This document shows positions 1 through 20,000 of a stretch of DNA of 20,000 bases, in pieces. Origin of the DNA: Psammoneis japonica (taxonomy: Eukaryota); the NCBI GenBank assembly GCA_008632985.1, contig QPGO01000074.1:371470-391469 (forward strand). The letters run 5' to 3'. The notes below the pieces were generated by a model. That model saw only the letters and a list, made by a program, of their open reading frames with translations. It did no database searches and was not told where the DNA came from. The position numbers and the translations under genes were made by a program. Each line of letters opens with the position of its first letter. Within the stretch, counting starts at the first letter, position 1.

Positions 1-1
1 C

Positions 2-2674
2 GATCCCAACGCGGTCCGTGAAAACCCCCGCAAGTGTTGCACCGTGATTGCACAATTGTTGCATTTGCAAAACACGGGACAATTTTTGTCAGGACCGGAA
101 GCGACCGAAGTGTTTTTTGGTGTGACCAAGCTATTTATGAGTGACGATGCTTCGTTGCGACGCATGGTGTATCTGTTCATCAAGGAGGTGGCGGAAACGT
201 GCAATCCCGACGATGTCATTATCGTCACGTCGTGTCTGACGAAAGACATGACGTGTGATGTGGACTTGTACCGTGCCAATGCACTGCGTGTGTTGGTGCG
301 GATTGTCGATGCCGCCATGTTGGGTGCGATTGAACGGTACGTCAAGCAAGCCGTGGTGGATTCGTCGGGACAAGTTTCGAGTTCGGCACTGGTGAGTGCC
401 TTGCATCTCTTTTCGAATTCCCCCGAGTGTGCCGCTGTGGTGAAACGGTGGATTTCGGAAACGACCGAAGCCACGTCGTCGCAGAATGAAATGGTTCAAT
501 TCCATGCCATGCAACTCTTGTATCAAATCAAGGCACACGATCGTCTCGGCATTTCCAAGCTTGTGACGCAGTACAGTCAACGCAACTCGCTCAAATCACC
601 ACTCGCCGTGGTGTTGTTGGTGCGCTACACGGCCAAGTTACTTCACGATGAAGTTTCCGAAGGACGTTCCGGTACATCTCTCCAAGACGGTTCGCCCATT
701 ATGCAATCGGGCTATGCCTTTTTGGAAGCCAGTCTCCGACACAAATCGGAAATGGTGGTTTACGAAGCCGCCCGGGCCATTTGCAATTTGCCCGGATTGG
801 AACCCCAAGATTTGTCACGGCCATTTCCGTCTTGCAATTGTTTCTATCGAGTCCCAAGCCCGCCACGCGCTTTGCTGCCATTCGCGTCTTGGCTGCCGTG
901 GCCCATGTCCATCCCCGCATGGTTTCCAAATGCAATGAAGATTTGGAGGGATTAATGAGCGATGCCAATCGGTCCATTGCGACCTTGGCCATTACGACTC
1001 TACTCAAGACGGGAAGTGAAAATTCCGTCGATCGGCTCCTCAAGCAAATCTCGGCGTTCCTGACGGACATTGCCGATGAATACAAGATTACCGTGGTGCG
1101 GAGTTTGCAACAACTCTGTCTCACGTACCCGTCCAAACACCGCGTGTTGGTGGGATTTCTATCCAACTTTTTACGCGAAGAGGGTGGTTTTGATTTCAAA
1201 AGGTCCATTGTCAATTCCATTGTTTCGCTCATTCGTAGTGTCCGGAAACCACCGAGAGTTCTTTGTTGCATTTGTGTGAATTTATTGAAGATTGTGAATT
1301 CACCATGCTTCGACGCAAATTTTGCATCTATTGGGAGAACTCGGCCCGACCACGGCGGCACCGGCACGGTATATTCGCTTTATCTACAATCGCGTCATTT
1401 TGGAAAACGCCGCCGTCCGTGCCGCCGCTGTGAGTGCGTTGGCGTCCTTTGCCGCCACGTGTCCGTCGTTACGAGCCAGTGTGCTTGTTCTTTTGAAGAG
1501 AAGTTTGGCCGATGAAGATGATGAAACCCGTGACCGTGCCGCCGTGGCGGTGCATGTCTTGGAGGATGCCATGGCCAAGCACCCCTATGTCGCTCCCGAA
1601 GAAGATGCCGAAGCCGAAGACATTGCTCCGGACCGTCCCGATGAAAATGATCCGGCTGCCTATGTCTTGCTCGAACCACTTCCCATGTCCTTTGACAAAC
1701 TCGAACGGAGTCTCAAGTTGTACGCGGCCACGGAAATGGACAAGCCCGAGCAAATCACGCTCGATGCACTTCCCGTGGTGGAAGATACACCGGAAGATTT
1801 GAAAAAGTCCTCCAGTCACGGTGTGCAAGATCAAGACGATGTGGTCGTTCCCGGCATGGCGGCTGTCGCCGAACCCGAACCCGTCGATCCCGCCGCGGAT
1901 GTCTATGCCATTCCCGAATTGGCATCGCTCGGACGAGCCTTTCGTTCGTCCATTCCCGTGCCTCTTACCGAGAGTGAAACGGAATATGTCGTGCAATGTG
2001 TCAAGCACATTTTCCCCAATCACGTTGTGTTGCAATTTTTGGTCCAAAACACCATTGAAGACCAACGGCTCGACAATGTCACGGTGGCCATTGATGCGGA
2101 TTCCGATGTGTTTGCCGTTTCGGGAGAAGTTGCCGTCGATGGCATTACCTATGGAACTACCAAGAGTTGTTTTACCGTGTTGGAAAAGGCTGGTGATCCC
2201 GAACAGGCGTCTCAGTTTGCCTGTGAACTCAAGTTTACCGTCGTTCAAGTCGATCCAACGACGTTGGAAGAAGAGGGTGATTCGTTTGAAGAAGAGTATC
2301 CGTTGGAAGATTTGGAAATTACCACTTCGGATTTCATGGCCAAGGTGTCGGTACCCGACTTTCGCAAAGCCTGGGAAACGGTGGGCAATGAGAATGAAGT
2401 TCTCGAAAAGTACGCTCTATCCTTCAAGGGTCTCAAGGATGCCGTCACGGCTGTGTTGTCGTATTTGGGCATGCAACCCTGTGATGGCACGGGCATGGTT
2501 AAGCCGGATACCAAGACGCATATGCTGCATTTGAGTGGTGTCTTTAGCAGTGGCAATCAAGTCTTGGCACGTGCTCAAGTGGCGGTGCAGAGCGATTCGT
2601 CGGTGGTTTTGAAGATTGCCGTGCGCAGTGACGATGCGGGAGTGTCGCGCATGGTGGCGGATTGTATTCATTGA
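2..2674 (+). CDS. COPG: Coatomer subunit gamma (gamma-COP), 5'-partial, with three apparent 1-nt deletions (~816, ~1241, ~1310)
   Basis: Recognisable gamma-COP motifs: [100 protein letters not shown]. ORFs 44-955, 781-1515 and 1322-2674 join through a third-frame stretch ([20 protein letters not shown], ~1242-1305). The frame is open from base 2. Confidence 0.97.
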
Positions 2675-2887
2675 GAGAAATACAATAGTAGTGTTGTAGT
2701 AGCGTAGTAGAAAAAGAAAAATGATTGTTGTTGCTTTTTTAGACTTGTCTATATAGGAAATAGCTTTAGCACGAGTACGGCATGTTCCGGTATCGCGATT
2801 TTGTTGAGATGGTTTCTGTTCCTTCACAACATATTGGGAACGAATGAAGCAACACTATTTAGACTACAGAACGGCTAGAGCAAGGCG

Positions 2888-3698
2888 TTATCGCCCTTCT
2901 AGAAACACTGCATTTCCCTTGGTGGAGTCTTTGATTGACTCTTTTAACCTTGCAAGGTCCTTTGTTTCACACGTTGCCGTGACTGTCATGTCCCCATTTG
3001 CTTCGTATTCTTCGTCACTAATCTCTCCACCCACCCTTCGCACAACGTCATAGATGGAACCGACATGCACCGACGATAGCTTGACGTGTATACTGGATTT
3101 TGGAATGAGAATTACTTTGGGTGCCTCTCGCAAAACGAGCCGTGCCGCTCCACCATAGGCACGAATCAACCCACCCGCTCCAAGCTTGATGCCTCCAAAG
3201 TATCTCACTACAACACAAACCACGTTTGCAAGTGATTCTCCCTTGATGGCACCCAAGATGGGTACACCCGCGGTTCCCGTGGGTTCACCATCATCAGAAC
3301 ATCGTTCTTGTTCGATGCCTCCATTATTATGGCATAAAATCCAAAACAGCATGACGACATTTTGGATGCATGGATCTCACGTGTTGCATCACATCTTGTG
3401 CTTGTTGCCACGAGTCCACGTTTTGTGCGTATCCAATAAACCGACTCTTTTTCACTTCCATTTCAGATTCATGCAATCCAACATCCAGAGTCGTTTGCTC
3501 GTGCATAACAGCCAAGGAATCATTATCATCCGTACTTTTGCCTCTGCAAACAACAACATTTCGAAACATGCCATGGTGGCGTTGTTGCTGTTGTTGACGC
3601 ACTACTGCAAGAGCCAGAGAGAACATGTCCTTTCTTTGTTGCAATACTAAAGAAAACATGATGATCCCTATACGAATAATTGCTCTACTGCAACTCAT
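2888..3698 (-). CDS. IMPACT/YigZ (UPF0029) family protein with an N-terminal extension; apparent frameshifts near 3330-3350
   Basis: EVKKSRFIGYA...HPKCRHA in ORF 3327-3719 continues into SDDGEPTGTAGVPILGAI...VVVRYFGGIKLGAGGLIRAYG in ORF 2888-3352. Start codon uncertain (ATG at 3698 or 3659). Confidence 0.92.
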
Positions 3699-3795
3699 TA
3701 TTGACGTTACCGATGTCAATGTGGTGGTGATTCAATGAAAATGGGCCATGGTCCATCGTGATGGATGGAAGGGAAGCGGTGCACAGCGGTACGTG

Positions 3796-3892
3796 TTTTC
3801 ACAAACCGGCGACTGTGCTCTAGCTTAGGTCTGGGTTGAGCGCGCGAGCGCGTGTCAGGTGCCCATTTTTCACGAACAGGCGACTGTGCTCT
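3796..3892. repeat. 26-bp imperfect direct repeat in the divergent YigZ/DnaJ intergenic region
   Basis: TTTTCACAAACCGGCGACTGTGCTCT (3796-3821) versus TTTTCACGAACAGGCGACTGTGCTCT (3867-3892), 24/26 identical. Confidence 0.8.
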
Positions 3893-4112
3893 TCGAGAAT
3901 TGGCGGGAAAAGAAAAAAAAGTCGTCGCTCCCGCGATGATCCTCCACGCGTCTCGTTCGCGTCGTCCATGACCGAGTTGCCAATAAGACGACGACCATAC
4001 TCATTACATTGCTTTCATCAAAAGCTCGAAAGCTTCTATCTGAATATTGTTTATAGATTGAGGAAATCAAAATGAAAATGGCAACAAAAAATCGAAAAAA
4101 GATCGACGATGC

Positions 4113-6073
4113 ATGATTGACACCGGTATTCCATCCGCATGTTGGATGGGATTGCCATTATTTGCCTTGCTATTCTTGTTTTGCTTTTGCAACAATGCTT
4201 TTGCACAACCCACATCATCATGTGCACCGCCATCGACTGATACATATGATTGGGAAAAATATGACTTTTATCAAGTCCTTGGGCTATATTGCCAGAACAA
4301 GACGGTAGCAAAAAATCTCGCAAACAACGACGCAAGGAACGCTCACGCTTCAAATCTGCCGATATTCGAAAGGCCTATCGCAAACAAGCACAGCTATTTC
4401 ATCCAGACAAGTTGGCTTCCAAGAAATCAACAACAACAAACAACAATGCTACGACATTGACAAAAGAAGAGAGTACGGCTCGTTTTGCCCGAATTGCAGA
4501 AGCATATGAAGTACTGAGTGATGAGAATAAACGCTACGAATACGATGAATTGCTTTTGGATTGTGAGGATCAACAATCCATGTCAAAACAAGCACCAAAA
4601 CAACAGCAACAAGGGTATGATGCTGGAAACAACAATCCTTGGTCCTTTTTTGACGACCTCACGACGGATCCATGGCATGTCTTTGAAGACTTTTTCTTTG
4701 GAGAATCATCCTTTCACGAGCAGGCCAACAACCGAGCCAAGGATACAATGAATTGGGACGACGGTAGATCACAACATTTCACGGATGACTCTACTACTAA
4801 TCCACGTCGAGTATACGAACGCGAGGAATTTCATTATGATCCCTACCGCAGAGTGGAAGTTCTTCGTATCTTGAGGACGGAAGAATTTGACGTGGATCCA
4901 CAAAACCACTCCTACTACTACCGGGTGATTGCTCAGGACTTTGTAGAACAGCACGATCCATTTCATGGGTGGGAATATCATCCAATCAATCATGCCTTTG
5001 TCATTGATGAAGGCTACAAACGAGAGCAACAACAACAGCAAGAGCATTCCAGGGCGTCGGATAATAATTTCGAAAACAGCCATCGCCAATACAAGGACAA
5101 ATTGCTCGCGAGTGAGGCACTGTACCCTTCTTCGGAACCATTGTTGACGTCTTTAAATGGCCGCTACTACGCGGGAATTTCTGCGGAATGCGAAATTCTC
5201 GTCATGTCGGATGATTCCTCCCGGCACGGGCCCAACGTAAATGACAAGGTTGTGTGGTCGTCGGAAACCTTTGTTCCCGCAGCGCAGCTCATGGCTGCTG
5301 GTGGGTGCTTTCTCTCGCTTCAAGGACCGCGACTCGTTCTAGCCTTGGGCAATCCCGAGTTTCCCGGAAGCATTTTGTGGTACAGTGAGGTTTCGCGAGC
5401 CGAGGAGGCAATGGCACAGTCCTCGGGGACGGCCTTTTTTGCGCGATTGGACAATGACGGAAGTTTGGCCGTGTACAGTGAAACCATGGTGGCGTTGGAG
5501 GGAAATGACGACTACTCTGCAGAGACGCTTCGCTATCAGTGGTGGTCAAAAATGAACAACAAACTAGAGTCTTATCCGTGGTGGAAGAACTTTGTAGAAA
5601 AGGCAACGGTTCAACCAAAAACAAGGGCGGCAAAAGCCTGGGTTGCTTGTCGTTCGTGGGTTGGCAGGACGGTGCTGGGGCAAAAGATAAAGTCCAAACA
5701 ATACAATTCTTCGCGTGATTCTTCAAGTCAAGCGAGGATTCGAACAGAGGAGACGTGTATTTACGCAACCGGTATGATGGGCTGCAACTCGTCTGCCAGA
5801 AAACTGCTCCACGTAGCTTCGGATGTGAAGCAAACCATATCACACAAGGTGAGACACACCGTGTCAAGAGTAGATCAGGCAATGGACGGTTTCGCCGATT
5901 ATTTGAATGAAGAAGTGGAAGAAGATGATGATGTCTTGGACACTTTACTAAGGGTCTTGAGCGCAGCTGGAAGAGGCATTGGTAGAGCTGGTCACAAGGC
6001 AGCTCGACGAGGGGCGAACGCAGTCCGAAACACGATAGAGGAACATCGCTACAAGTTGAAACGGTCAAAGTGA
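4113..6073 (+). CDS. Signal-peptide-bearing DnaJ (J-domain) protein with a bulb-type (B-) lectin-like domain; apparent frameshift ~4286
   Basis: The hydrophobic leader (LPLFALLFLFCFCNNAFA) and YDFYQVLGL in ORF 4113 join IRKAYRKQAQLFHPDK...FARIAEAYEVLSDENKRYEYD in ORF 4289-6073. The region 5141-5480 (LTSLNGRYY..VVWSSET..LSLQGPRLVL..ILWYS..RLDNDGSLAVY) resembles B-lectin repeats. Confidence 0.85.
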
Positions 6074-6179
6074 CTAGACCGTCTGGGATCTTCACGAATG
6101 TGGCACTTCTACGATGGAGTTGCATGAGTCATCTACAACTTGGCGAGTGCTACATTGCCGGCTTACAATGTTTCTGATT

Positions 6180-7268
6180 TTAATGATGGAGTTTGGCCTT
6201 TAGAATCTCCAGGTGTCTTTCGTAACGAAGTTGGTAATTCTCCGAGTTGCCTAATGTCTTGGCCTTGGATATCAAATTTTCCAAAGCTTTGACGTGAGCT
6301 GTTTCCAGGGCTTGTTCTTGGGCCACCTTGATGTCCGGCTCAACTCCTGTTCCTTCCCAGTTGGTTTTGGTAATGGGATTGATGGCTCTGCCTTTGGGAA
6401 CCCACACGACAAAACGGTCCGTCGCAATCTCGACTCCACCGGGATGCGCTCCTCCGCCGGTAGTTTCTCCCACGATTACGGCCCTCTTCAGGTTTTTCAG
6501 ATTGTATGTGAATTCTTCCGCGGCCGAAAACGTGCGTTTGCTGGTCAAAATATAAGCTTCGGCGTTGGACCCAATCCTCTTGCCGGGGACATGAGGCAAC
6601 GTCGAAAAGTGTTCCATGGTATCGTCATCACGCCAATAAAAGCTGTTGAGGTGTACGGGTTTTTGTTCGGCATCATAGAGGTAGCTGGTGAGCAACTGGA
6701 TCATTGTTGGGCAACCACCATTGTTGTTTCGGAGATCGAAAATGAGGGCGTTGCAGTTGGCCACCAAATTCATGGCGGCAACGGCCGTTTCTCCCGCGAC
6801 TTGGGCTGCTGAGAAACTGCGAAGATCAATATAGCCTATGTTGCCCAACAGAATCTTGATTTCCTTGAAACCAAAGTTGCCAAATCGAAGTTCTTCGAGC
6901 AGACTTTCAGAAAGTTTTTCATAATTATCGTCAACATCATCTTCCTTTTCTTTTTCCGTCTGAGCCCGTATTTGTTGCACATTGCCGGGGTCAAAATCAA
7001 CGCGAAGATGCCCGTCGTGACTCACGGATTGCAAATCCTTTGTCAACCTGTCCGCATAGTGGCGAGCGTCGACCAGAGAGCTGTATTTCTTATCATTCAC
7101 ATTCTGCTCTAGCAGGGCAGCCATCTTTTCGGCTACGTCCGGAAATACGTATTTTTCACTGAGCAATCGGTTGATGCTTGTGACGACTTCTAGTTGCTCT
7201 TCTTCAGTGACTGCCACGTCTGCGGCGGTTGCTTCTGGCACTTCATTCGCTTCTTGGTCGGCCTTCAT
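6180..7268 (-). CDS. S41 family peptidase (IRBP-module-like), 362 aa, intronless
   Basis: Motifs YVFPDVA, LTKDLQSVSHDGHLRV, GNIGYIDLRSF, LIFDLRNNNGG, TFSAAEEF (catalytic Ser region), VGETTGGGAHP, NWEGTGVEPDI. Start taken at MKADQE (7268). Confidence 0.93.
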   Translation of the reverse strand: MKADQEANEVPEATAADVAVTEEEQLEVVTSINRLLSEKYVFPDVAEKMAALLEQNVNDKKYSSLVDARHYADRLTKDLQSVSHDGHLRVDFDPGNVQQIRAQTEKEKEDDVDDNYEKLSESLLEELRFGNFGFKEIKILLGNIGYIDLRSFSAAQVAGETAVAAMNLVANCNALIFDLRNNNGGCPTMIQLLTSYLYDAEQKPVHLNSFYWRDDDTMEHFSTLPHVPGKRIGSNAEAYILTSKRTFSAAEEFTYNLKNLKRAVIVGETTGGGAHPGGVEIATDRFVVWVPKGRAINPITKTNWEGTGVEPDIKVAQEQALETAHVKALENLISKAKTLGNSENYQLRYERHLEILKAKLHH

Positions 7269-7825
7269 GATTTGCACGTGGAACAATACAACGTTGTCAA
7301 AACACAAAACAATGGTACGAGAAGGACAACAAATGCTCGTGGTTTCTGCGTTGTTGCAAGCATCAGATGAATCAATTATGCAACACTGCTGCTGAAACCA
7401 AAACAGTAGCAACGTAGTGCACTGTGGATGCCAAAAAGTGAGAGACAGAGGTTCGAACGTGTTCCATCAAGTAGGGCCTTCCATGATCCAAGATCTGGAT
7501 TCGATCGACGAAAAGATCGCGGACCGGGCGGGTTAGCGATGTTTTGTTCCCGTCTCAAGATTAAAATTCCATGTTTTATATATCCAAAATTGACTATTGT
7601 ATTAATTTGTTACCAACTTATTTACGTGTATGATACCGTATGAAAGGAAATGATTGTGTCTTGAAAAGCCATCAACACGAATGGTTTTTCTGTCCATTCA
7701 CGATTCAACTCCTCCCGCTCGGAAATTGCGACGTGGAGCCTACCTCCGAGCTATGGACATGGACAAAAAAGAACGGCCAGTGGCGCTTGCGAGGCCAACA
7801 ACAAAGTGGTTGTATACAATACAAG

Positions 7826-9283
7826 ATGATTGGACGCCATAGCATCATTGGACACCGTCGTAGTTTAACCTCTTTGGAACGTGATCCGTTGCTCCCGCCA
7901 CCACACCATCCTCATCACGACCATCGCCCGAGTCAAGCACGTCGAGCCTCGTTGGCAAACATAACTGCGAATCATGAAGAGGGAGAAGTTTCCGTTGTGG
8001 AGCTGTTTTCTGACCTTGTGGTGGTTGTGGCTCTGCATAATTTGTCAGATATGCTCGGTGAAGGCACTGTTGGTTTGCACATGTATTTTTTTCAAGTCCT
8101 TCTGCTCTGGTGCCTCTGGCACAACTGTATTCTCATGATGAATCTGGCCAACATTTACACGGCCAACGAACCAAAAACATGGCATCACATTGTAGTGTTT
8201 ACCGTTATGGGATCAATTGTATTCATGACAACGTCTGAAAATCCTCTTTCCATGTTGATCGCCTTTTGGGTGGGAAGAGCCGTGCAATTGGTCGCCGTTG
8301 TAGTCATGGGAAACTCGAAACGACCCGTCTGGGTCGATCACGAGTGGCATGAAAACATGGTAAATCTATGCTTCGTTGTGATTCCCTTCAAGGCACTTTT
8401 AGAAAGTGTACCTCTTTTGGTCACGTTGTCTGTGTTGCAAAGTGACCGATTGGTGTTACTTGGCGGCGTAGTCTCGGCTGCTGTCGGCATTGGTTTCCAT
8501 TTATATTCTGCAAACATGCACGATGTCGTAGAAAAGGAACGGATGGGTTCAGTCAAAGTACTGGACGTTGAACACCTCACGGAGCGGCATGAGCTCGTTG
8601 TACTCATTCTCTTTGGTGAATTGTGCTTTGCCGCTGCATCATCGTCGGGCGCATATTACATGTCGCTTTGCACTCTCTTGACCGTCTTTGGGTGCTTCTT
8701 GTTGTACTTTGCAACACGTGTACCGGAGCGCCAGGAGCCTTGGACGCGATCGGCAGTGACAAATGCGCTCTGTCAGTACTTTCATTTGCTTTTGATGGGT
8801 GTTATGCCTCTCATTAGTGTCGGATTCACTAGGCTCATTTTGCATGCAGAAGGCAAGGAAGATGATGACAATGAACACGATGGTGTGGCGGCATTGCATT
8901 TCGCCACGGCTGGCTTCTTGTGGGTCATGGGACTGATTGACTTGATTGCTGCTGACCCCGAAAATCCTCGCAAGCAACCTCGATGGAGAAGGAGATATCG
9001 GCTGCTTCTTAGATTTGCAGGTGGATGCATCGTGGCCTTACTCTATTGGCTCCCTAGAAATTCAGATGTTGTGGCAGCGACCATTGCACCCTCTACGTTG
9101 CTCACCGTGGCCGCTATTGAGATGTGGGCCGTGCAGTTGGTTGATGTTTCTCTCGAGGATGATCCACAGCCACCGGGTTTGTTAGGGCGCAGTCGACGAT
9201 TGGGTGTGCTGTCGGACAATTCATTAGATGCGTCGGGCAGGTCAGTCGACGACAAAGATGATGGCGTGTCAAATCACTCCTAA
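7826..9283 (+). CDS. LtrA (low temperature requirement A)-like multi-pass membrane protein
   Basis: EVSVVELFSDLVVVVAL and EHLTERHELVVLILFGE match the LtrA-family ELFxDLVFV and HLxERxxLxxIIxLGE motifs. Many hydrophobic segments. Start uncertain (7826 preferred over 7640). Confidence 0.8.
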   Translation: MIGRHSIIGHRRSLTSLERDPLLPPPHHPHHDHRPSQARRASLANITANHEEGEVSVVELFSDLVVVVALHNLSDMLGEGTVGLHMYFFQVLLLWCLWHNCILMMNLANIYTANEPKTWHHIVVFTVMGSIVFMTTSENPLSMLIAFWVGRAVQLVAVVVMGNSKRPVWVDHEWHENMVNLCFVVIPFKALLESVPLLVTLSVLQSDRLVLLGGVVSAAVGIGFHLYSANMHDVVEKERMGSVKVLDVEHLTERHELVVLILFGELCFAAASSSGAYYMSLCTLLTVFGCFLLYFATRVPERQEPWTRSAVTNALCQYFHLLLMGVMPLISVGFTRLILHAEGKEDDDNEHDGVAALHFATAGFLWVMGLIDLIAADPENPRKQPRWRRRYRLLLRFAGGCIVALLYWLPRNSDVVAATIAPSTLLTVAAIEMWAVQLVDVSLEDDPQPPGLLGRSRRLGVLSDNSLDASGRSVDDKDDGVSNHS

Positions 9284-9611
9284 AAGCATTACCTTTTGTG
9301 CATAGGTCGTACTGTACTCTATCTCCAAGTGAAGATACAGACAGAGGACATTAATCAAGGACCTTTCCACTATGTATCTTTTCCCCACGTGCTATAGGCT
9401 TAACCGTAGTAGCCCATTTCAGGCAATGGCTGAAAGTGGAGAAGGGTGTTGTAGCTACAGAGTTTTCGGAGAAGGTATTCGACTGTATTCGTAGGCAAGA
9501 ATAACTCTTTGTTTTCGTGCGGAGCGAGTTTGAAAATTAAATTCGAACAATCTATGCTGTACCAGGGGTCGGCTTCTATGAGCCACACACAGTCCGCCAC
9601 ATGTACGGGTT

Positions 9612-9956
9612 CTAGACCTGCCAGAAACCGCAGTCAATTCCACCTTGAATTACAATGGCAAAGATTCCCTCGCCCGGTATCTCCATTGGATCCATGGCAA
9701 CTTTTGCTCCGGCCTTAACAGCCGCCTTGACGGCAGCATGAATGTCCTCAACAAGCATGTACGGTCGCACAACTGGAGTTTCCGTTTCCCGCATGGGCAT
9801 GCGAAGCCCAATCTTTCCTCCATTCAAAAAATCTGCGGTTCGGGCCCCACCAAAATTGGCATTGGGCTCGCTAAATGTCACACCGTGAATTGCCGAGTAC
9901 TGCTCGCACAAGGCATCAACTTTTGATGTGACAATCTCAAGATAATGGACTTTCAT
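9612..9956 (-). CDS. VOC/glyoxalase-bleomycin-resistance superfamily protein, 114 aa, bacterial-like
   Basis: MKVHYLEIVT...VVRPYMLVEDIHAAVKAAVKAGAKVAMDPMEIPGEGIFAIVIQGGIDCGFWQV has the typical VOC C-terminal pattern. Confidence 0.88.
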   Translation of the reverse strand: MKVHYLEIVTSKVDALCEQYSAIHGVTFSEPNANFGGARTADFLNGGKIGLRMPMRETETPVVRPYMLVEDIHAAVKAAVKAGAKVAMDPMEIPGEGIFAIVIQGGIDCGFWQV

Positions 9957-10699
9957 GGGCGTCCCTTTTTGTTGATGAAATCGAATTGACTGTCGAATCA
10001 ATAATAAACAGCAGAAGACAAGCCTATCTTCAATCTCAAGAATCTGCAACAGTAGAATGGCAACAAAGCAAAAAAAAAAAAAAAGATCTTTCGCAAGATC
10101 CACCAGCTGTCGTACCGGTACCAGCAATCAAGAAAAAAATGGCCAAAGAGCGCATTCACCTAAACTGTAACAAAAGCTCTATCGTGCCTTTGACGACTCG
10201 ATGACAGGATCCATCGCATCGGTCCGCCACCATGGTTGTTGTTGGTCCAGCTGCAAAGCTGTGATGCTTGCCATCTTGATCGGCAAATTCAAAGTCGGCC
10301 TCACAATGTCGCTGCTCCCTGCTTTCTTCCACATGGTGGTGCGTGGTGCTCTCTGCGATTCTGAAGCAGCCAGCTGCTCCTTCATCACAGGCAGCCCAAC
10401 CTTCTCAATGCATTTGAGTTGCTCATCGATTGCAGATTTTAGTGGGCATGCCCCATCAAACCCTGCACAAAGCTCCTGCAGTGTCTCTCTGGTGACACCA
10501 GCATGATCAGCACAAGCCAGCGCAACAAGAGAGCTGTGTTTTCTGACGTGAGCTGGCCTGGTGGCTGCTTTGCTTTTTCCACTGGAGCCACCACCCCGCA
10601 TTTCCTTCTGACAATGGGGAGAATGCCAAACTTCTTTCAAGATTAATGGCAGATTGGTTCTGGCCACCAAGCATCTTGCATCATGACACCACACTTTCA

Positions 10700-11727
10700 A
10701 CTGTGATTCAGCGCATCTTTCATTCGCTCGTCATCCGCTTTGATGCTGGACTTCCTGCAGCCACCAGCCATGTTGTCAAATGAGTCTAATGCAAAATTTT
10801 CTTTGTTGTCAAGGAGCTGCAGGACTCTTCCTCTGCTTTGCTGCTTCTGCAAAAATCTGCTTGGCTTTCTCATTGGGGAATGACTTTTCCAGGCATGGGA
10901 GCAAACCAGAAACGATGAAGCGGGCATTGGCAGAGTTGTGTGGAATGAAAGAAAATGTGACTGTGTCATCTTCTTGCTGGCATTGGTTGTCATGGTGCAA
11001 AAATCAAGCAAACCATTTGCCTCACAGGAAATGATCAGTGAGTGGAGAGAGTCGATTTTGACACCTTGCGGGGGGGGGGGGAAGACCAACCCTGCAATTT
11101 TGCAGGATTGACGTTCTGCAGCATGCGCTGTTTCCATGATGTTGTCACAGAAGTTTTTCTGATTGTCGCGGAGCCTCTTGCACTTGAACTCACAGTTTGC
11201 TGTTGCAAGGAATTTGTTCGCAGGGATGAAGTGTGCCCAAGTGTCAAGAGGAAACTCAACAGCCATGGATGAGCAAATGTCAGACACAGCATTGATGGCA
11301 TGGTTGCAGTCTCTTGTTCATGAGCAGCCTCATCATGAAGGATGCACGTGGGGTTCCTTCACTTGCACGCAGTCATTGTTGAGTTAAATCCTGGTCTTCC
11401 AGAGGCAATCACATGCCAGCGGAGGTCAGCTCTGCTCTTTTTCCATGTTTGGTCTAGATGCCTGCAAAAGTCAATCCGTCTAAGTGTTCCACATGAAAAT
11501 GCTGCGTGCACTGCCAGAAGATGCACAATTTATGTTCAAAATTGATTGTCGTTTTGTGCGTCACCGGGACCAGAACACGTCAAACAGCCATCCAATGTTG
11601 GGAGTTTTCTCAACATCTGGGGCAGCATGGAAATGAAGCCCATGTGAAGCTGCACTCAGCTCAGGTTGGGTCTTGTCAGTGAGTGCATTTGCACTGATTG
11701 TGGAGGCCAGAAAAATCAAAGCATGGT
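10700..11727 (-). pseudogene. Decayed repeat-associated ORF (possibly non-LTR retrotransposon ORF1-like), 3' part, interrupted by the LTR element
   Basis: Protein-like fragments in shifting frames: ALIFLASTISANAL..NIGWLF, SDICSSMAVEFPLDTWAHFIP..KRLRDNQKNFC, TVTFSFIPHNSANARFIVSGLLPCL. Family assignment is from recalled resemblance only. Confidence 0.35.
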
Positions 11728-11731
11728 GCAT

Positions 11732-12200
11732 TGAAGCAGGCATCCCTGCCATGTGGCTGCCAATGATGCCACTTTCCTGCGTCTGCAGGCTGTCCGCAGC
11801 AATGCTGATCCCGCAGAAGCATGTTGTAGAAAACACGACTCCCAGTGCAAGACCTGAGACAGGCTACAGGAGTGACCCACGCGACTGAGACCAGCGCGAC
11901 TGGCCATCGCGCACGTGACTCACCTTGCATGAAGGGTCTGCGCATCGCGCAGGATGCAGGGCCCTGCGCAGTGCCGAGCATGAGCCTGCGAATTGGCTCC
12001 ACATGAGTGTCAATGAGTGCCACAAAAGACTTGTGCTTGAGTCTTTCCAATGACTCATCATGCAACAAGAATTCTTGTTTCTTAGAAAAGAACACCATCG
12101 CGCATTTGTGCTCTAACTAAAACAATCTCATAATTTTCACAACACCCAAATCTATCTCTGCAGCGTTGCAAGCACTTGTTCCCCATTTCTGCATGGGTCA
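11732..12200 (+). repeat. 5' LTR (469 bp)
   Basis: TGAAGCAGGCATCCC...CTGCATGGGTCA; aligns end to end with 13700-14213. Confidence 0.92.
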
Positions 12201-12218
12201 TGGCGACATTGCTCCCGG
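12201..12218 (+). promoter_or_regulatory. Putative primer-binding site
   Basis: TGGCGACATTGCTCCCGG begins immediately after the LTR-terminal CA; TGG is complementary to tRNA CCA. The cognate tRNA is not identified. Confidence 0.7.
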
Positions 12219-12248
12219 CAAGTGCAAGAACAGTTTGCTTGGTTGACA

Positions 12249-13436
12249 ATGAAGGTCGGACAAACAGCGCTTAGCGCATTCATGACACTGGCGGTCGTTC
12301 CACCGATTGCCTTTCAACGTCCGGTCCCCAGGGTTCTGAAAGAGAACCAAAGTCAGACGTGCAAACTGCACACGAACCCAAATGACCCAGATGGTCCTGC
12401 GCATGAACTTGCGGTCACCTGCTTCTCGGCGCAGTCACCTGAAGAATGGCTCCTTGTTGTAAAGGACTGTGACCGTGCATGCATCAGGCAGAACATTGCG
12501 ACAGGACCCGGTGAATTTTTGCTCACAAGAAGGCTGTTAGAGGGTGATGCCCTTGCTGCCTTTGACAATGCAGCGGCGAACGAAAATGCAGAAATGGCAA
12601 TGTTGTTGGCATGTTGCATGGCTGCTGTCACCAAAAGTGTTTTCCCAGAAAGGGCTGCATTGACACAGAAGTGCCGTTTAAGGCATTTCATGCAAAAGCC
12701 GTTAGATGTCAAAATTCGTGAGCATGTCACTCGTGCCATAGAAATCAATGAGTGCATTCCAAAATTTCCACCAGTTGAAGACAATGGACAAGCTCCGCAA
12801 GTGCCATCCGAAGATGAGTTGGTTGATTTGTTGGAATGTGGCATTCCACGGCTGTGGCAGCGCCAAATGAAGTTGCAAGGATTCAATCCTTTGGCACACA
12901 CTGTTCCAGAATTTGTCTCATTCTGTGAGCATGTGGAAGAAGTTGAGGCTGCTGACAAGCTCATGGCCTCTGCCTCACCTCAAGACGACCCTGAAGACGC
13001 CAAGATGAAGTCAGCAGATGATCCGATTCCACGCTAACGATCAAGTTCCAAGAGTCCTGCACCAAGCGAGTTGATGTCGGCAGCAAAGGAGTGAGTTTCG
13101 ATGATGTCAGATGGAAAACGTGGTCACCCATGCATGCTTCACGGTGCATGCAACCCCAACACTGACGATTGTTGGTCTCTGAAACGTCAGGTCAAGAAGC
13201 TCAAGACTTTGGATGCACACAGATCCGAGTGCAAGAATGCGCACAAGCGTGACACTGGCGCAAGCAAGGAAGAAATCAACATCATCATTGAACAAGCCAC
13301 AAAAAATGCATTGAAATGTGTGGCACGTGATGACGCGAAGGCAGACAGTGAACTTCATGCCTTTGACAACGCATGCCTCTCTGAAGATTCTGATGCTGAC
13401 ACCGATGATGTGGCAGCAACGAGTCTCCAAGAATGA
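12249..13436 (+). pseudogene. gag: Mutated gag with two in-frame stops (TAA 13035, TGA ~13092) and a degenerate C-terminal Zn-knuckle
   Basis: KLHTNPNDPDGP..SPEEWLL..QNIATGP..RRLLEGDALAAF..VFPERA..KP..EINECIPKFPP..DELVDLLECGIP..WQRQMKLQGFNP..EFVSFCE resembles diatom gypsy gag. ORF 13101-13436 is in the same frame and carries CMLHGACNPNTDDC. Confidence 0.85.
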
Positions 13437-13690
13437 TGGCCGACATGGCAGTGACCTGTGCAACCCCAGTGGCTTGGACAATTTGACAAATGTCCCAATG
13501 CTCCTGAGTGCAGCACTCACTTGTGCATGTTCTGCTGCAGGCCACACATGGCAAAATGTCCAGTGAAATGGCAACAATGACAATGACATCCTTCATGCAT
13601 GAGAAGGCATGTGCGCTGGTTTTTTGGACACACCAACAATGTCCTTTTTCCAGCAGTGGGACCCTTCTGTCACTCATGCGACCTTGTCAC

Positions 13691-13699
13691 AGGGGCGAG
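13691..13699 (+). promoter_or_regulatory. Polypurine tract
   Basis: AGGGGCGAG lies immediately 5' of the TG that starts the 3' LTR. Confidence 0.7.
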
Positions 13700-14213
13700 T
13701 GCAGCAGGCATCCCTGCTGTGGCCGCCGATGATGCCACTTTCCTGCATCTGCAGGCTGTCCGTAGTGACGCTGATCCCACAGAAGCATGTTGTAGAAAAA
13801 ATGACTCCCAGTGTGAGCTGTCTGCAGCGATGCTGATCCCGCAGAAGTGTGTTGCAGAAAACACGACTCCCAGTGCGAGACCTGCAATGGGCTGCAGGAG
13901 TGACCCATGTGACTGAGACCGGTGCGACTGGCCATCGCGCACGTGACTCACCTTGCATGAAGGGTCTGCGCAGGATGTGCGCAGCACCGAGCATGAGCCT
14001 GCGAATTGGCTCCGCATGAGTGTCAACAAGTGTTGCAAAAGACTTGTGCTTGAGTCTTTCCAATGACTCATCATGCAACAAGAATTCTTGTTTCTTAGAA
14101 AAGAACACCATCGTGCATTTGTGCTCTAACTAAAGTGATCTCATGATTTTCACAACACCCAAATCCATCTCTACAATGTCATGAGCACTTGTTCCCCATT
14201 TCTGCACAGGTCA
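13700..14213 (+). repeat. 3' LTR (514 bp)
   Basis: TGCAGCAGGCATCCC...CTGCACAGGTCA. The length difference from the 5' LTR equals a +62 bp duplication and 17 bp of small deletions. Confidence 0.92.
13755..13878 (+). repeat. 62-bp tandem duplication inside the 3' LTR
   Basis: 13755-13816 and 13817-13878 both read GCTGTC...GCTGATCCC...GACTCCCAGTG.GA; the unit is single-copy in the 5' LTR. Confidence 0.9.
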
Positions 14214-14217
14214 GCAT

Positions 14218-14450
14218 GATTGGTTTCCCTCAACAGTTTGGGCAAATGTGGCTTTAAAGTCCTTTTGTGGTTTCACACTGTTGCAAGGGGTGTTGCTTGG
14301 GGAAAAGATTGCTGGGTCTTTGCTGTTGGCAGCACAGGCAGCAATTGCCAAGGTGGAGTCTCCTTCATCTTGGAGGATTTTGAAGAATTCCAGGCACGCA
14401 AGCTTGTCGCAGCTCCTCATTCACATGAGAGTGGGGTTTGATGGGTTGTC
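14218..14450 (-). pseudogene. Upstream part of the decayed ORF interrupted by the LTR element
   Basis: LEFFKILQDEGDSTLAIAACAANSKDPAIFSPSNTP..DFKATFAQTVEG runs up to the TSD. A 1-nt shift is needed to join HHALIFLAST on the other side. Confidence 0.35.
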
Positions 14451-16054
14451 CTTGATTTTGTGGTTCATGGCAGAGGTGATGATTGCACTTGATTGCAACA
14501 GCCGTGTTTGCATTGGATTGCAAAAGGTTTCAGCATTGCAAGGGGGGGGAGGGGGAACTCCTCAATGATTGTGGCAGAGTTCTCATTGTCATGAGCCAAA
14601 GTCATCACATGCCATTTGTGTTGGCTTGTTTGTGCACATTTTCTGCAGAGGGTGCACCAGTGAGGAGCATTGCTGTTGCACCATTGTTTTTGATGATGGG
14701 GGTGCAGTTGACCCTGGTGTGTTTGCTGCATGGCTTGAGGTTGGTGCGGGGAGGAGGCATTGTTGAGTGAGGTTGAGATGTTCCTGTGCAAAAGAGCAGC
14801 AGAAACCATGGGAAGTGTGCAGGACTTCAAAGCATTGTTGTCCACTCTGCCAAAAAGTGCAGGTCAAGCCCAACATGGTGATGCTCAATGCATGGCTTCT
14901 AATCATGCACAGCTGGGGTTCAGCAGTCAAGCTGCGGCAGGTTCTGTGCAGTCACGAGTCAAACACAGGATGTTTGAGCCTGCATTTAAGGTCTCTCTGC
15001 AGGGCTTCAGTGCTTGCATGGAATCATGGTGCTTAAATTGTGCAGGCCAGCCCCAGCTGCAATTGGGGTCCCTGAATGAAAATCAAGTCCAGCATCAGCT
15101 TCATCTTTGTCAAGATCAGCTGTGCACTCATGAGCAATTTGGTGGTGATTTTCCACATGGTTGGTTGAAGACTGGCTGGGTTGAGCATGGCAAGGTGGTT
15201 GGCCTCCTTGGCTCATGGCACAGAAGAAGAAGATCAACCAATCCACAAGCGCACATGATGAGAAGTTTTTCTGCTCTCAGCTCATGGTGGAGACAGTGCC
15301 GAAGCTCCAAAACTCAAATCCCAGAACCTCTCGTGCCAAACAGGAGTGTCAAAGGGGCACTTCTCTTGGCTGGGCTCCTTTGTGCTTTGTGGCTCAAAGC
15401 AGCTCCAGTGGCTGGGGTCCAAGAAGTCAACACACTGCTTCTCTGGGCTGCTGCACAACAATCCCCTCCTTCTGAAAATTTGGTGTCATAAATGCGCACG
15501 ATCGTACGGGTCAAATGGTCTGTCCATCAAACGATTTTCGATTTCGGCTCTGGCACTTGTTTCCCATGGAAGTGGTGGGGTCTGCGTGCACTTCTACGCA
15601 ATGCATGCTAAGAATGCTGCCAACAAATCACTTTTCCCAAGACACTTCATGGCGTTGTTGACCACTGCTCCTGCCTCACGCTGAAGCTTTCCTGCCTGTC
15701 CTTGGCATTGCAGCACTTCTTTTCATCACAATGGTTGTCAACATGAGTGAGTGTGAAGAAGAAATGGAGTCAATTGGCGAGGAAGACCTGGAGCCGCTTG
15801 ACCACAATGAGGCACTGCCGCCAAGCCTGACAGCTCCGAAACATTTGAAGATCGCCTGACAACACAAGGCATTTTACACGGAAGCTGACATGCCAGACAA
15901 AGGATGCAAATGCTTCCGAGTGGAAGAACCAGAAATCTTTGCGTGAGAGCTTCAAAGTGCCAAGGAGCGGAAGGCAGTGGAACAATCAACCATCGCATTG
16001 TGCTTTTCTGATTTGTCTTGTTCGGTTTGGTCCGGCAAGTTCAGGCTTGCACCA

Positions 16055-17233
16055 TCAGATGATGGCAGCAATTGGTGGTTGAATTGATTTGCAAAACCAT
16101 CTCAACAACTGCACTTCTGGTGTCTGGGTCTCTTTCATTGCGTTGAAGTCTTTCTCATTTAAGGAATCATTGAACACAAGAACAGCCTTCACATGAATCA
16201 GAATGAGCAACTTGAGATTCAGGAAGTTGGACTCCTTTGCAAGGAAATGCATTTTTGCAAGAGCATCTGGGTCTTCACAATTTTCATCAAGCAGATTTTC
16301 TTGTCAACTCGGGGGGCTCGGGAGAGCTTCTTGTTGCCACAGTGATTCGATGCTAACTCTTCTGCCGGCATCTGCCGGTGTGCCATCACCGACCATGCAT
16401 CAAACCCTGCTGCATCTTTGCCATGCTTTATTTTTAGTTCTGCATTGTCCACCATCAGCACAAGCCCATCTCCAGGCGCAAATTTTGCCCTGGGCTCAAG
16501 GCAGGCTGCAACAGATTCAGAAGCCTTTGCAACACCAGCCACCAACACAGATGTTGTCACTTTGAAGTTGGCAAGAGCATCTCACCAATGAGTCGCCTTG
16601 TCTTCCTTGCTTGTTCATCGTCTCCACAAAAGCGTTCACATCAGTGCCATTGACGGCAAATGCAAAAACAGACAGTGGCAAGGCCGTTCTGTTTTCTTCT
16701 GACATGAGGTGTTTGAGTGCATTTTTTGAGCTCATTGGGTCAGCCCCATTTCCTGTCATAGCCGCAGGCAAGAGCACGGACAACATGTTCTTGAACATTT
16801 TCGCAACAGTGAGTTTGGTTTGATTGTCATTTGCAGTGATGTCTCCTTTTCTATTGATTGCTGCAAATCCAACTGGGGTGTGTAGCATTTTGCCATCCCC
16901 ATCTGTTTCAACTGCCGCTTGCTCCGCAAGTGGCAGGCCATCTGTTCTGATTGTTCTTGATGCGGTGCCGTCATTTTGTTTCTCCCGGAGGAACTCCAAT
17001 GTTTGTGACTTGGTGGGGTTCCTCTTTTTCTTTTTCTTGACAGGAGCTGGGCATTCAAACTCGACTTCACTTTTTTCCAATTCACAATTTCTCTTTTGGA
17101 TGGTGCGAACTGTCGTGTGGCTGGTGGCGCGTTGATCACAATGCAGTGGGCTCTGGGATGTCTTTTCCACTGGCAAACGAACCATGAGTGAAGACAAATT
17201 TTGCAGCCTCAAGGAGTCAGAGTGACGATGCAC
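16055..17233 (-). pseudogene. Decayed coding-like sequence of unknown family
   Basis: Consecutive minus-strand ORFs (16517-17233, 16219-16560, 16055-16252) have protein-like composition, including the basic stretch PVKKKKKRNP, and no Tyr. No domain recognised. Confidence 0.3.
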
Positions 17234-18041
17234 TCCTCCTCTTGCTCCTCAGCACATTCAACACCATGCAAGTGACATTTTCAATTGTCGTCGTTGTTGT
17301 CGTAATCCGCTGGGGTCGCAACGAGATGGTGCAGGGAAGAAAGAGTGGCTTCACTTCTCCACTTCACGATTTTGAAAATTTGATTTTGGTGTGTTTTTAC
17401 GCACAAGTCTACAATCATCTGGGATGTTCTCAATCCAAGAATGCGAGCTTGGAGAGCTTTCTTGGGTCTCATGAGGGCCACAGGACAGAACAGGACATGT
17501 GATGGTGCACCCACAATGATGTGCAAACTCAGCAACGAACCTTCTGGCAGGGCCAGCTGATCAATCCGATGGAGTCAGTCAGAGTGCTTGACAACAAGGG
17601 CATGGAGTGCAATCAGAGGGAAGCACTGATGGTGTCAGAGCTGCAGATGGTTGCTCCAGTCTGGGTGCCCCCACACACATCAAGTTGCCCCAGCAGCTGG
17701 GGGCGAGCCAACCAGCCGAGCTCGCGTGCACACGGAGATCCAAGTGCCTTCCTGATGCACTGCCTGGATGACCACTCCAGAGCAGCACCTCAGACAGAAT
17801 GCAATCAGAGAGCATCTGCTGATGAGCAGCAGCAGCAAGAGCCCAGTCAACAGCTCAACAAAACTGCCAGTGCAGCCAAATCACAAGCTCTGCCCAAACT
17901 GGATCTGCTGAATGTTCCAAAGCAAGGTTCTCCCACACACTTGTACCAGAGACCAGTGCAAGTTTCAGGGACAACCATCTTCACAACAATCAACCAAGTG
18001 CTGCTGAAACAATCTATGGTGGTCCCAACATGTGCCGGTAG

Positions 18042-20000
18042 ACGGCCTGTGATCCGCAAAGCAACGAGCTAGAAATTCAGGGCGACCGGAAGATTGGGTC
18101 GGTGGACAGACGACCCTGGAGCGAGGCAACGCCAACGAACACAAACCCCAGCCATGATGATGCAAGCAATCGCGACGAGTGGCTCTCTCAGATCAAGGGG
18201 GAAATCCAGGATGAATTGGGCGCTGCATGGCGTGAAAGCCGTTGGACGGAGTTTATTGAGGAAGTATTGTGGTCCCTGCACGAGAATGATATCGTTGACG
18301 GAGACACGATTCGCACCGCCGAGGGCCTTATCAAGTGCGGAGTACGAACCAAGAAGCATCTGATTGCAATGGCCGGAAAGCCTCCCGACGATGAAAAATT
18401 GTCGAGAAAGCTTGAGGCGAAAGGCGTGTCTCTCGTCATCTGCGCTATGTTGTTCAACGAGTACGTCCATGTGAATCGAGATGGTAAGTCTGACTGGCGT
18501 TGTACATATTGAATATGTGTCAAACATACTGTACAGTATCTCGTTCTTGGTTTCTATTGTTCCATCGCATATACGGTTTCAACTATAAAAACTCATCCTG
18601 ATTGTACTTGTCTATTCTTTTCAAAGTAGCTTCACTACAGCAGCAGCAGCAGCGGACTGGCATGTTTACTGTCTTCGTGAGAAACCACAATTTGTCAGTC
18701 ACGAATGTTATTAAGTTCCACGATAAGCGTTTTCCATCGACTGTGGGTGAGTTCTGGGAGGCGACAGGCCTTGAATGGACCGTTGACTCTGCGTGTGTCA
18801 CGGTAAAAATGCTTATGGGCTGGGAAAAATTGAGCGACAATCCCAAAAATACAGCAAATTATGCTGAGGGTGACCCCAGCTTCGGGATTATGTTTCAGTT
18901 GTCGCCTTACCGTACTCCTACATCAAGTCCTATTAGCGACGAATACATCAGTATCCAGGCCGAGGAGGAGTCGAATTTTGCTGAATGTATCCAAAACTTA
19001 TTTCGCGAGAATCCTTTCAATGCAGCTATACCAGAGCTGTACGAAGACGGGGCGATCCGTGGGTTACGATTGTTCTTCCAGCAGGGAAGAGAAGAAAGAA
19101 CAAGGTCGTTGGCTTCGGAGGTGAAAACGCTTGCTCTGATATTTGCGATGCCTGGGGCAGGAAAGACTCGGACTGTACAAGAAGCAGCTCATAGTCTTGG
19201 TTTGGAGTATCACAGATTCAAGATGTCTAACGCAAACTTGTCCACGATGAGAGAGGTAAGGCAGTTCCTCTTGAAAAGGGTAGCAACACTCTGCGACTGC
19301 GAAACGAATGCGATACCTCTAGAGAGAAAGGTGCTGGTGCTTCATTTTGATGAAATTCAATCAATTATGAGAGCTCCACGTGATGACGGAGACAGAGATA
19401 ATTCCCTTGTGACCACGCTGGCCAAAGAATGTGATGCGTTGATTAACAAACATGGGGAGAACCAACGTTCGTGGCTCAAGTTTGTAATGACAGGCACCAA
19501 TATCTTCTCGGACACACAGATCAATGTGGGCAGTCAAGTGAAAACAGAATTGATACCGATGGGGGGCTCTTTTTCTCATGACTTTGTATGCCAGCTTGCG
19601 AGGAAATATAATCTCATGCCATTTTTCGCTGAAGACAACGAGAAATATCTGGAACGCTGTCGCCAACCGACGCTTTACCGAACGATTTTTCTGTGCTTTG
19701 TGGGACAAACGAGGCGAGGGCATCGCTGATCCCTCCGTTGTGGATGATGCGTATCACTCGGCACTCAGTGCAATGAGTCGACAAATTGCTGGAAACATGG
19801 GAGGAGAAACTATCAACGTATCTTCAGTTGCATGCACTGTCTTCGCAAAGATTCTGGATATCAACTCTGAGATGATAGTCAACGGCATCGCAATACTCAA
19901 AACTGTTCCATGACTGAGAAGTCTTATATTGCGGGTGGCGGGTTCAACGTGAAGGAAATGATGGGGAGCGATATTTCAATCTTCTACCCCGCTGGATGTG
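18042..20000 (+). CDS. Crinkler/RHS-like protein: helical (SAM-like) header, polyQ linker and P-loop NTPase; one intron, apparent frameshifts ~19665 and ~19910, 3'-partial
   Basis: Walker A AMPGAGKT and Walker B LVLHFDEIQ in ORF 18602-19729. The upstream exon (frame open from 18042 to 18483) splices in frame. Coding-like sequence continues in shifted frames (NRRFTERFF..., MTEKSYIAGGGFNV...). Confidence 0.65.
18484..18626 (+). other. Spliceosomal intron (phase 1)
   Basis: GTAAGT donor at 18484, AT-rich body, pyrimidine tract and AAG acceptor at 18626. The alternative TAG at 18629 is also in frame. Confidence 0.75.

Follow-up and report, generated by a model that had tools for sequence, protein, structure and literature searches.

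TpA-to-TpG/CpA mutation near saturation in transposon DNA of Psammoneis japonica, and a Ty3/gypsy-derived gag without tyrosine

The closest described counterpart of the pattern reported here is the TpA hypermutation of integrated nucleocytoplasmic large DNA virus (NCLDV) and virophage DNA in the rhizarian alga Bigelowiella natans (Mettrop et al., bioRxiv 10.64898/2026.01.13.699255). There the signature was measured in mutation-accumulation lines, reached a ~1000-fold rate per generation, was active in some lines only and was ascribed by the authors to ADAT2 as a proposal; it has been caught in action in two viral regions, of which the larger is single-copy, leaves a mild depletion (Rho 0.45) with almost no GC>AT change, and is accompanied by TpA-poor reverse-transcriptase and DDE genes. 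We have analysed a stretch of 20,000 nucleotides from Psammoneis japonica (contig QPGO01000074.1, positions 371,470 to 391,469; hereafter the window), in which a 2.5-kb gag-only long terminal repeat (LTR) element at 11732–14213, a non-autonomous Ty3/gypsy derivative, carries a gag frame devoid of tyrosine. Like the B. natans process, the one that produced this gag converts TpA to TpG or CpA on both strands, at the DNA level, in foreign or mobile DNA only and with on/off behaviour. Unlike it, the process in P. japonica runs near saturation (observed/expected, o/e, ~0.1), strikes multicopy transposons, shares its domains with CpG decay, prefers TAY to TAR and leaves spared islands. Diatoms go unmentioned in the main text of the preprint, as far as the parts consulted extend, and the literature searched, which left most subscription journals outside its coverage, yielded that B. 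natans preprint only and no diatom report of a TpA signature.

Other known systems share part of the pattern. Repeat-induced point mutation (RIP), known from Neurospora and other ascomycetes, likewise acts after insertion, is confined to repeats, makes dinucleotide-specific transitions on both strands and wrecks transposons. However, RIP turns CpA into TpA and creates many stops, whereas the change described here goes in the opposite direction, raises GC content, makes no stops and removes TAA and TAG. RIP is also set off by duplicated sequence before meiosis and depends on RID/DIM-2. The diatom DNMT4 is related to RID, its function being given as unknown (PMC9998398), and a further source, as far as consulted, covers C>T hypermutation only (PMC12730594). 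Pol eta WA mutagenesis, as in antibody hypermutation, also makes A>G changes most often at TA, but here AA is not favoured. Deamination of 5-methylcytosine (5mC) in methylated transposons shares the affected domains and accounts for Arg>His/Cys/Gln changes and for one stop; per dinucleotide, however, it proceeds at roughly a tenth of the pace of TpA loss (14% vs 80%), and it is unable to remove TpA.

The window gag (Table 1) was first described from its sequence alone as two open reading frames of 271 and 111 amino acids (aa), both without Tyr. The absence of Tyr was borne out on both sides (12249–13037 and 13101–13436), and so was the length of the second part; the first measures 262 aa from its ATG, and the two prove to belong to a single frame, interrupted by stop codons at 13035 and 13092. 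In seven homologues drawn from other datasets, 61 of 2505 residues are Tyr, which gives a probability of ~6e-5 for 0 Tyr in 393. With 7 TpA observed in the gag and 74.7 expected, the missing Tyr are the protein-level shadow of a DNA feature, TpA depletion. The six Cys or His positions that the sequence-only reading had named as former Tyr are all Tyr in TA-rich copies of the same genome. It had also proposed a comparison with intact homologues, and in the seven outside sequences the named columns hold Tyr or Phe rather than Cys or His (Cys 0; His once, at aa 159). Here aa 52, 58, 159 and 169 are mostly Tyr (6/6 of those covering aa 52 and 7/7 at aa 169), while aa 38 is mixed (Tyr in 2/6) and aa 197 is mostly Phe (6/7, Tyr 1/7). 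At aa 143, which the sequence-only reading had not picked out, the counterpart of the element on contig C79 reads CAT, four copies read TGT and 4/7 outside homologues have Tyr; aa 74 is a further, weakly supported former-Tyr position.

The alternation of Cys and His at one column among copies requires TAY as the common source and upholds the proposed polarity, TA to TG/CA. Eight Tyr-rich columns in 156 homologues hold 612 Tyr, 231 Phe, 51 His and 23 Cys. A related family of the same genome, family B, has a gag 44–48% identical to that of the window and encodes protease, reverse transcriptase, RNase H and integrase, arranged as in gypsy elements; across 51 of its copies, six Tyr columns (306 codons) read 168 TGY, 121 CAY, 15 TAY and 2 other.

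The mutation spectrum was first taken from 21 TA-poor family B copies against two TA-rich ones, counting only positions identical in the latter pair. The 1008 TA sites had become 406 TG, 315 CA, 4 CG and 6 other, 277 remaining TA, so that 721/731 changed sites ended as TG or CA; CG had turned into TG or CA at 192/1722 sites. A wider set of 57 longer family B loci, of which 55 mapped (2 references, 2 lightly hit and 51 hit copies), was retrieved with a TA-erased query, and its hit share is therefore no genome-wide estimate. Domains were called hit or spared from TA alone, leaving CG as an independent read-out. In the hit domains of the 51 copies, TA was changed at 8392/10515 sites (~80%) and CG at 1585/11503 (13.8%), compared with 105/1864 and 34/1712 (2.0%) in spared domains, while private transversions were equal (143/126541 vs 27/20404). 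The near absence of GC>AT change in B. natans thus does not extend to P. japonica, where we read the CpG decay as a second, parallel process. The mean hazard per A was 1.86 in TAC, 1.81 in TAT, 1.01 in TAG and 0.75 in TAA, which makes Tyr codons the best target. Private A>G changes at AA, CA and GA amounted to 0.0034, 0.0027 and 0.0022, a TpA specificity over other A of roughly 250- to 600-fold in which the non-TA rate is somewhat understated, since private changes only were counted. The context preference was TAY over TAR, with AA no hotter than GA (82/23949 vs 91/25669); read from T, a 5' purine was favoured (RTA 0.48–0.52 vs YTA 0.24–0.27). Hit domains also showed a two- to four-fold excess of non-TA A>G, again biased toward a 3' pyrimidine, and a periodicity of the TA hazard was looked for in vain.

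These changes arose, almost certainly, after insertion, in DNA, on both strands, site by site and independently in each copy. Among 13 copies, both TG and CA occurred at 172/194 sites, which likewise bears out the direction TA to TG/CA. Neighbouring events agreed in direction at 0.48–0.50 at every distance, two lightly hit copies had same-direction neighbours in 10/18 and 15/35 cases, and strand runs of TG or CA were absent from the copies tested. In a young TA-rich copy the LTRs differ at 4 sites, every one of them TA. The LTRs of the window element differ by 9 TG/CA doubles, 5 TA, 12 CG, 4 other transitions and 2 transversions, where the doubles alone are ambiguous, since CG can also yield them. 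Over 2482 bases, 47 CG, 7 TA, 6 doubles, 3 other transitions and 6 transversions separate the element from its C79 counterpart, which is probably the other allele; genic DNA has 7 changes in 1440 bases. Together, these observations show a distributive, post-insertion process at the DNA level in which TpA was exhausted before CpG. Two copies, L052 (19/138 TA changed) and L082 (36/213), represent early stages of this process.

By the genetic code, TA>TG/CA yields no stop from a sense codon; the damage to the elements therefore comes through missense load, and gags end up Tyr-free because TAY is the best target and has no synonymous escape. In family B, 14,718 gag codon comparisons contained 748 TpA missense changes (~15 per copy), including T>A 203, L>P 88, N>D 84, Y>C 83, V>A 82 and Y>H 52, together with 266 missense changes from CpG decay and 5 stops in all, 0 of them from TpA. 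Missense load rather than stops, as anticipated from the sequence, is thus what this family shows, Tyr loss being a minor share of it (Y>C/H 135/748 vs T>A 203). The window element departs from that expectation in also lacking pol and in carrying two stops of other origin: the one at 13035 is not a TpA product, and the one at 13092 is, judging from the codons of other copies, attributable to CpG decay. To CpG decay had also been assigned the Arg>His/Cys/Gln changes, which fits aa 41, 142, 149 and 228, where other copies have CGN codons, and does not fit the Cys of FCEH, which is conserved. A separate feature of family B is an in-frame TGA between gag and pol in 36/55 copies (e.g. L060, L053), TA-rich ones included, while 12 further copies end at an alignment gap at the gag-protease junction; this arrangement suggests stop read-through.

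Confinement of the process to mobile DNA is seen on comparing the repeat block of the window with its flanking genes, and holds at the fetched loci as well. The block contains 47 TA against 491 expected and 205 CG against 477 expected, in comparison with 318 TpA against 654 expected in genic DNA (1–9900); its edges are sharp, and its repeats recur elsewhere in the genome. Within family B the process is either on or off over delimited domains, which are also those of CpG decay. The protease region of 43 hit copies falls into two classes: in 23 it is nearly untouched (0–0.18 of TA changed), in the other 20 it is fully hit (0.71–0.94), and intermediate values do not occur. Outside that region both classes are hit to an equal degree (80% and 73%). 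CG decay follows the same division (16/711 in spared vs 99/606 in hit protease regions). Island edges differ from copy to copy around a common core; now and then a single LTR, or one of a few further segments, has likewise been spared. The 23 islands are 23 distinct sequences with private transversions (15/8365 vs 9/7236 in hit copies), which argues against polishing or recent conversion, and no sequence variant outside TA sites predicted the island state among the 43 copies. Short-read contigs from one public run, possibly the source sample itself, covered 30/30 bins of one island copy at >=98%, in short pieces none of which crosses an island boundary, leaving the edge unphased. We favour reading the spared island as a bistable stretch of open chromatin, and rate as equal the alternative that silencing spreads inward incompletely. 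Since CpG decay falls in the same domains, silenced, methylated chromatin would be the probable target of the mutator.

The scar appears not to be limited to this genome. Among 72 metagenome loci with a related gag, three (L137, L138 and L149) have TA o/e of 0.31, 0.11 and 0.41 and Cys/His at Tyr columns, having been chosen for exactly these two properties, while a few other TA-poor loci keep Tyr. The three form one family, with 37–42% protein identity to the families of the P. japonica genome and no DNA match in its assembly, which may be incomplete. When aligned, they all retain TA at 1/32 TA columns vs 38/69 for CG, and show 38 TG/CA doubles in 3110 bases vs <=7.7 per kb in other pairs. At the protein level only, 3/156 homologues retain <=2 Tyr and show Cys/His in Tyr columns; no sequence of the P. 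japonica genome matches them at more than 45% identity. Five other metagenome gags (L139, L157, L173, L174 and L175) combine a CpG o/e of 0.04–0.27 with retained Tyr, so that in other organisms CpG has decayed while TpA was not erased.

As to mechanism, our preferred explanation, to which we assign a probability of about 0.4 as a whole chain, combines targeted TpA mutation, silenced chromatin and adenine deamination. Silenced, 5mCG-methylated chromatin would recruit or license a mutator, and spared islands would be stretches kept open; the A of 5'-TA(Y) would be deaminated to hypoxanthine by an enzyme of the TadA/ADAT fold, and the hypoxanthine fixed as G at replication. A YAY > YAR hierarchy is described for engineered TadA variants (PMC12528748), and the genome has genes that read as ADAT2-like and TadA-like, although an ADAT2-like exon is expected in any eukaryote. 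Several points weigh against this explanation. The deaminase set is ordinary (9 matches), with no expansion or chromatin-reader fusion seen. TadA-type enzymes require a single-stranded substrate, and strand runs are lacking here; such editors also edit CA, which in our data is no hotter than GA. Per-copy TA loss is not significantly correlated with CG loss (rho 0.20, p 0.17), and the TA hazard is unrelated to CpG distance (rho 0.04). In the hypermutable regions of B. natans, according to the preprint, 1/231 changes is not AT>GC, so CpG decay is no required companion (bioRxiv 10.64898/2026.01.13.699255). One 491-aa frame (L115, G000:C79:88506-88676, - strand) joins a zinc deaminase domain to an apparent 2-oxoglutarate/Fe(II) dioxygenase; it probably belongs to nucleobase metabolism and would fuse two base-modifying chemistries.

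A less likely rival is error-prone gap filling by Pol iota, which would insert G opposite template T after TpA-specific nicking or excision within silenced chromatin. Its chemistry is exactly T>C/A>G at single sites on either strand, and a Y-family polymerase of the genome, at G000:C22:252628-253293 and regarded as the Pol iota orthologue, finds its best solved relatives in Pol iota (96 bits, vs kappa 57 and eta 51), its finger motif GQKHIIV aligning with human QQKYLVV. Pol iota is, for its part, common in organisms without such a scar, and a 250- to 600-fold TpA specificity is too high for a polymerase alone, so that an extra initiator is required. The human enzyme favours dGTP 5- to 6-fold opposite T, as does L62I (PMC3031609), and a TpA context for it was not found in the parts seen of PMC3031609, PMC4995076, PMC2194173 and PMC3434439. 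A fifth Y-family polymerase (L228, G000:C19:616608-617336, + strand) lies between eta and iota by its best matches, L226 being a clear eta. We give about the same low weight to some other enzyme or a repair defect, with hypoxanthine or T:G left unrepaired in silenced chromatin and the scar a by-product rather than a defence: the rise of non-TA A>G and of CpG decay in hit domains would fit, yet a passive defect leaves a several-hundred-fold TpA specificity with unchanged transversions unexplained. Slightly less likely still is modification of the thymine in TpA by oxidation or alkylation, followed by pairing with G. The data do not distinguish which base of the pair is attacked, the 5' purine preference appears when read from T, and several C5-methyltransferase-like genes are present (27 DNA_methylase matches); on the other side, it is without a candidate enzyme, and a TET/JBP search gave no match, the control search being equally blank. 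Copies of a C5 DNA methyltransferase gene (L125, L126, L127 and L131, on G000:C301 and C297) lie in TpA-erased DNA (o/e 0.07–0.11), in some cases with stops, and possibly ride on a mobile element.

Damage before insertion, through ADAR-like RNA editing or during reverse transcription, is highly improbable. ADAR prefers UA, as cited in the B. natans preprint (bioRxiv 10.64898/2026.01.13.699255), but TG and CA are mixed in each copy without runs, TA sites differ between window and C79 copy, the process also strikes a repeat with inverted termini, and the differences between the LTRs of one element refute such damage before insertion. We give hardly any credence to a reversed polarity, in which RIP-like C>T changes made the TA-rich copies, or to a polishing artefact. 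TA/TG or CA differences are directionless by themselves, and a majority vote over hit copies would give TA; the Tyr of outside homologues speaks against reversal, and the 23 distinct islands with private transversions, together with the short-read coverage of one copy, against an artefact. Further candidates were rejected on the spectrum. Pol eta WA mutagenesis is contradicted by the lack of an AA hotspot and by a TA hazard independent of nearby CpG, and repair patches around deaminated CpG by a hazard unrelated to CpG distance or density. GC-biased gene conversion does not agree with a non-TA A>G of only 0.2–0.3% and a shift of CpG toward AT in the same domains. Deamination of N6-methyladenine (6mA) at ApT is excluded by the coldness of AAT (35/5625) and GAT (30/6366). 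The UV photoproduct of TA gives TA>TT, and TT or AA arose from TA in 3/1008 cases.

The features of the window are collected in Table 1. The element shares LTRs, a 4-bp target-site duplication and a capsid-like gag with Ty3/gypsy, and differs from it in the absence of pol. No Pfam family matched its gag in our search; the first Atlas match is Retrotrans_gag (0.94, with 124/256 features in common), and Arc and retroviral capsids rank first, weakly (best E 0.038), against the predicted model of a gag homologue, in a fold search that brought up capsids alone. The genome holds 147 gag matches. The repeat whose relatives carry inverted termini differs from a TA-rich relative on contig C116 at 25 and 23 TA sites. 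To the left of the element, a short high-copy repeat (>30 matches) occupies 11450–11585, where the C79 counterpart (C79:1830-2301) has ~470 extra bases. A gamma-COP encoded in the window has its nearest named relatives in Cyclophora (70%) and Attheya (69%), which we take to be diatoms, brown algae being at 51–53%; the host is accordingly a diatom. Adjoining the block, foreign-looking single-copy genes at 6180–10127 have TpA at the normal genic level, not erased; these intronless frames (6180–7466, -; 7634–9283, +; 9612–10127, -) presumably resemble a bacterial S41 peptidase, an LtrA-like membrane protein and a glyoxalase-like protein. TpA is also normal in an AAA-domain frame to the right of the block (18602–19729, +).

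Table 1. Coordinates of the features of the window; L numbers denote other copies in the same genome.
Feature	Positions	Strand	Remarks
Nested repeat block	10200..17950		TpA nearly erased, CpG partly decayed
Left target-site duplication GCAT	11728..11731	+	matches 14214–14217
5' LTR	11732..12200	+	LTRs of Ty3/gypsy type, TG...CA
gag	12249..13436	+	395 codons, Tyr-free, two in-frame stops
aa 38, TGC (Cys), Tyr/Phe column	12360..12362	+	L061 TAC; three copies CAT/CAC
aa 52, CAT (His), Tyr column	12402..12404	+	L067, L060, L061 TAT; two copies TGT
aa 58, TGC (Cys), Tyr column	12420..12422	+	L060, L061 TAC; L035 CAC
aa 143, CGT (Arg), Tyr column, both bases changed	12675..12677	+	L060, L061 TAC
aa 159, CAT (His), Tyr column	12723..12725	+	L060, L061 TAT; three copies TGT
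aa 169, TGC (Cys), Tyr column	12753..12755	+	L060, L061 TAC; four copies CAY
aa 197, TGT (Cys), Phe/Tyr column	12837..12839	+	L061 CAT, L060 TTT; L008, L028 Tyr
In-frame stop, transversion	13035..13037	+	private to window copy; absent from 7 other copies including C79 copy
In-frame stop at CpG site	13092..13094	+	common to 3 copies; CpG-type codons in 4 others
Purine-rich tract before 3' LTR	13691..13699	+	putative, polypurine-tract-like
3' LTR	13700..14213	+	holds 62-bp internal duplication
Right target-site duplication GCAT	14214..14217	+	4-bp target-site duplication
Repeat, relatives with inverted termini	15480..17412		putatively DNA-transposon-like; TA o/e 0.11

Taken together, what is new here is the all-or-none protease island, the CpG decay in the same domains, the TAY>TAR preference without strand runs, the scars in gag relatives absent from the genome, and Pol iota as a rival. 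We think the odds lie slightly in favour of a general reading, in which diatoms, and probably other algae of the stramenopile-alveolate-Rhizaria (SAR) group, would possess a chromatin-guided mutator that rewrites the TpA of silenced transposons to saturation as a heritable defence, a mirror image of RIP and a natural A:T>G:C editor at work in >1 wild genome, with the protease region of family B behaving as a bistable island in cis and evading it in roughly half of the copies. If this is true, a signature reported in one alga would extend to a second branch of a eukaryotic supergroup, near saturation and on transposons, and whether a RIP-like defence exists outside fungi could be tested in a group where genetic tools work; its enzyme would be a DNA mutator of natural origin, specific for TpA and driving A:T>G:C. 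Because near-identical copies include both spared and hit islands, they offer an internal control for targeting, and LTR dating, repeat annotation and GC-content models would be biased for such genomes. Gags with Tyr replaced by Cys or His may serve as a cheap marker for finding further genomes with the process.
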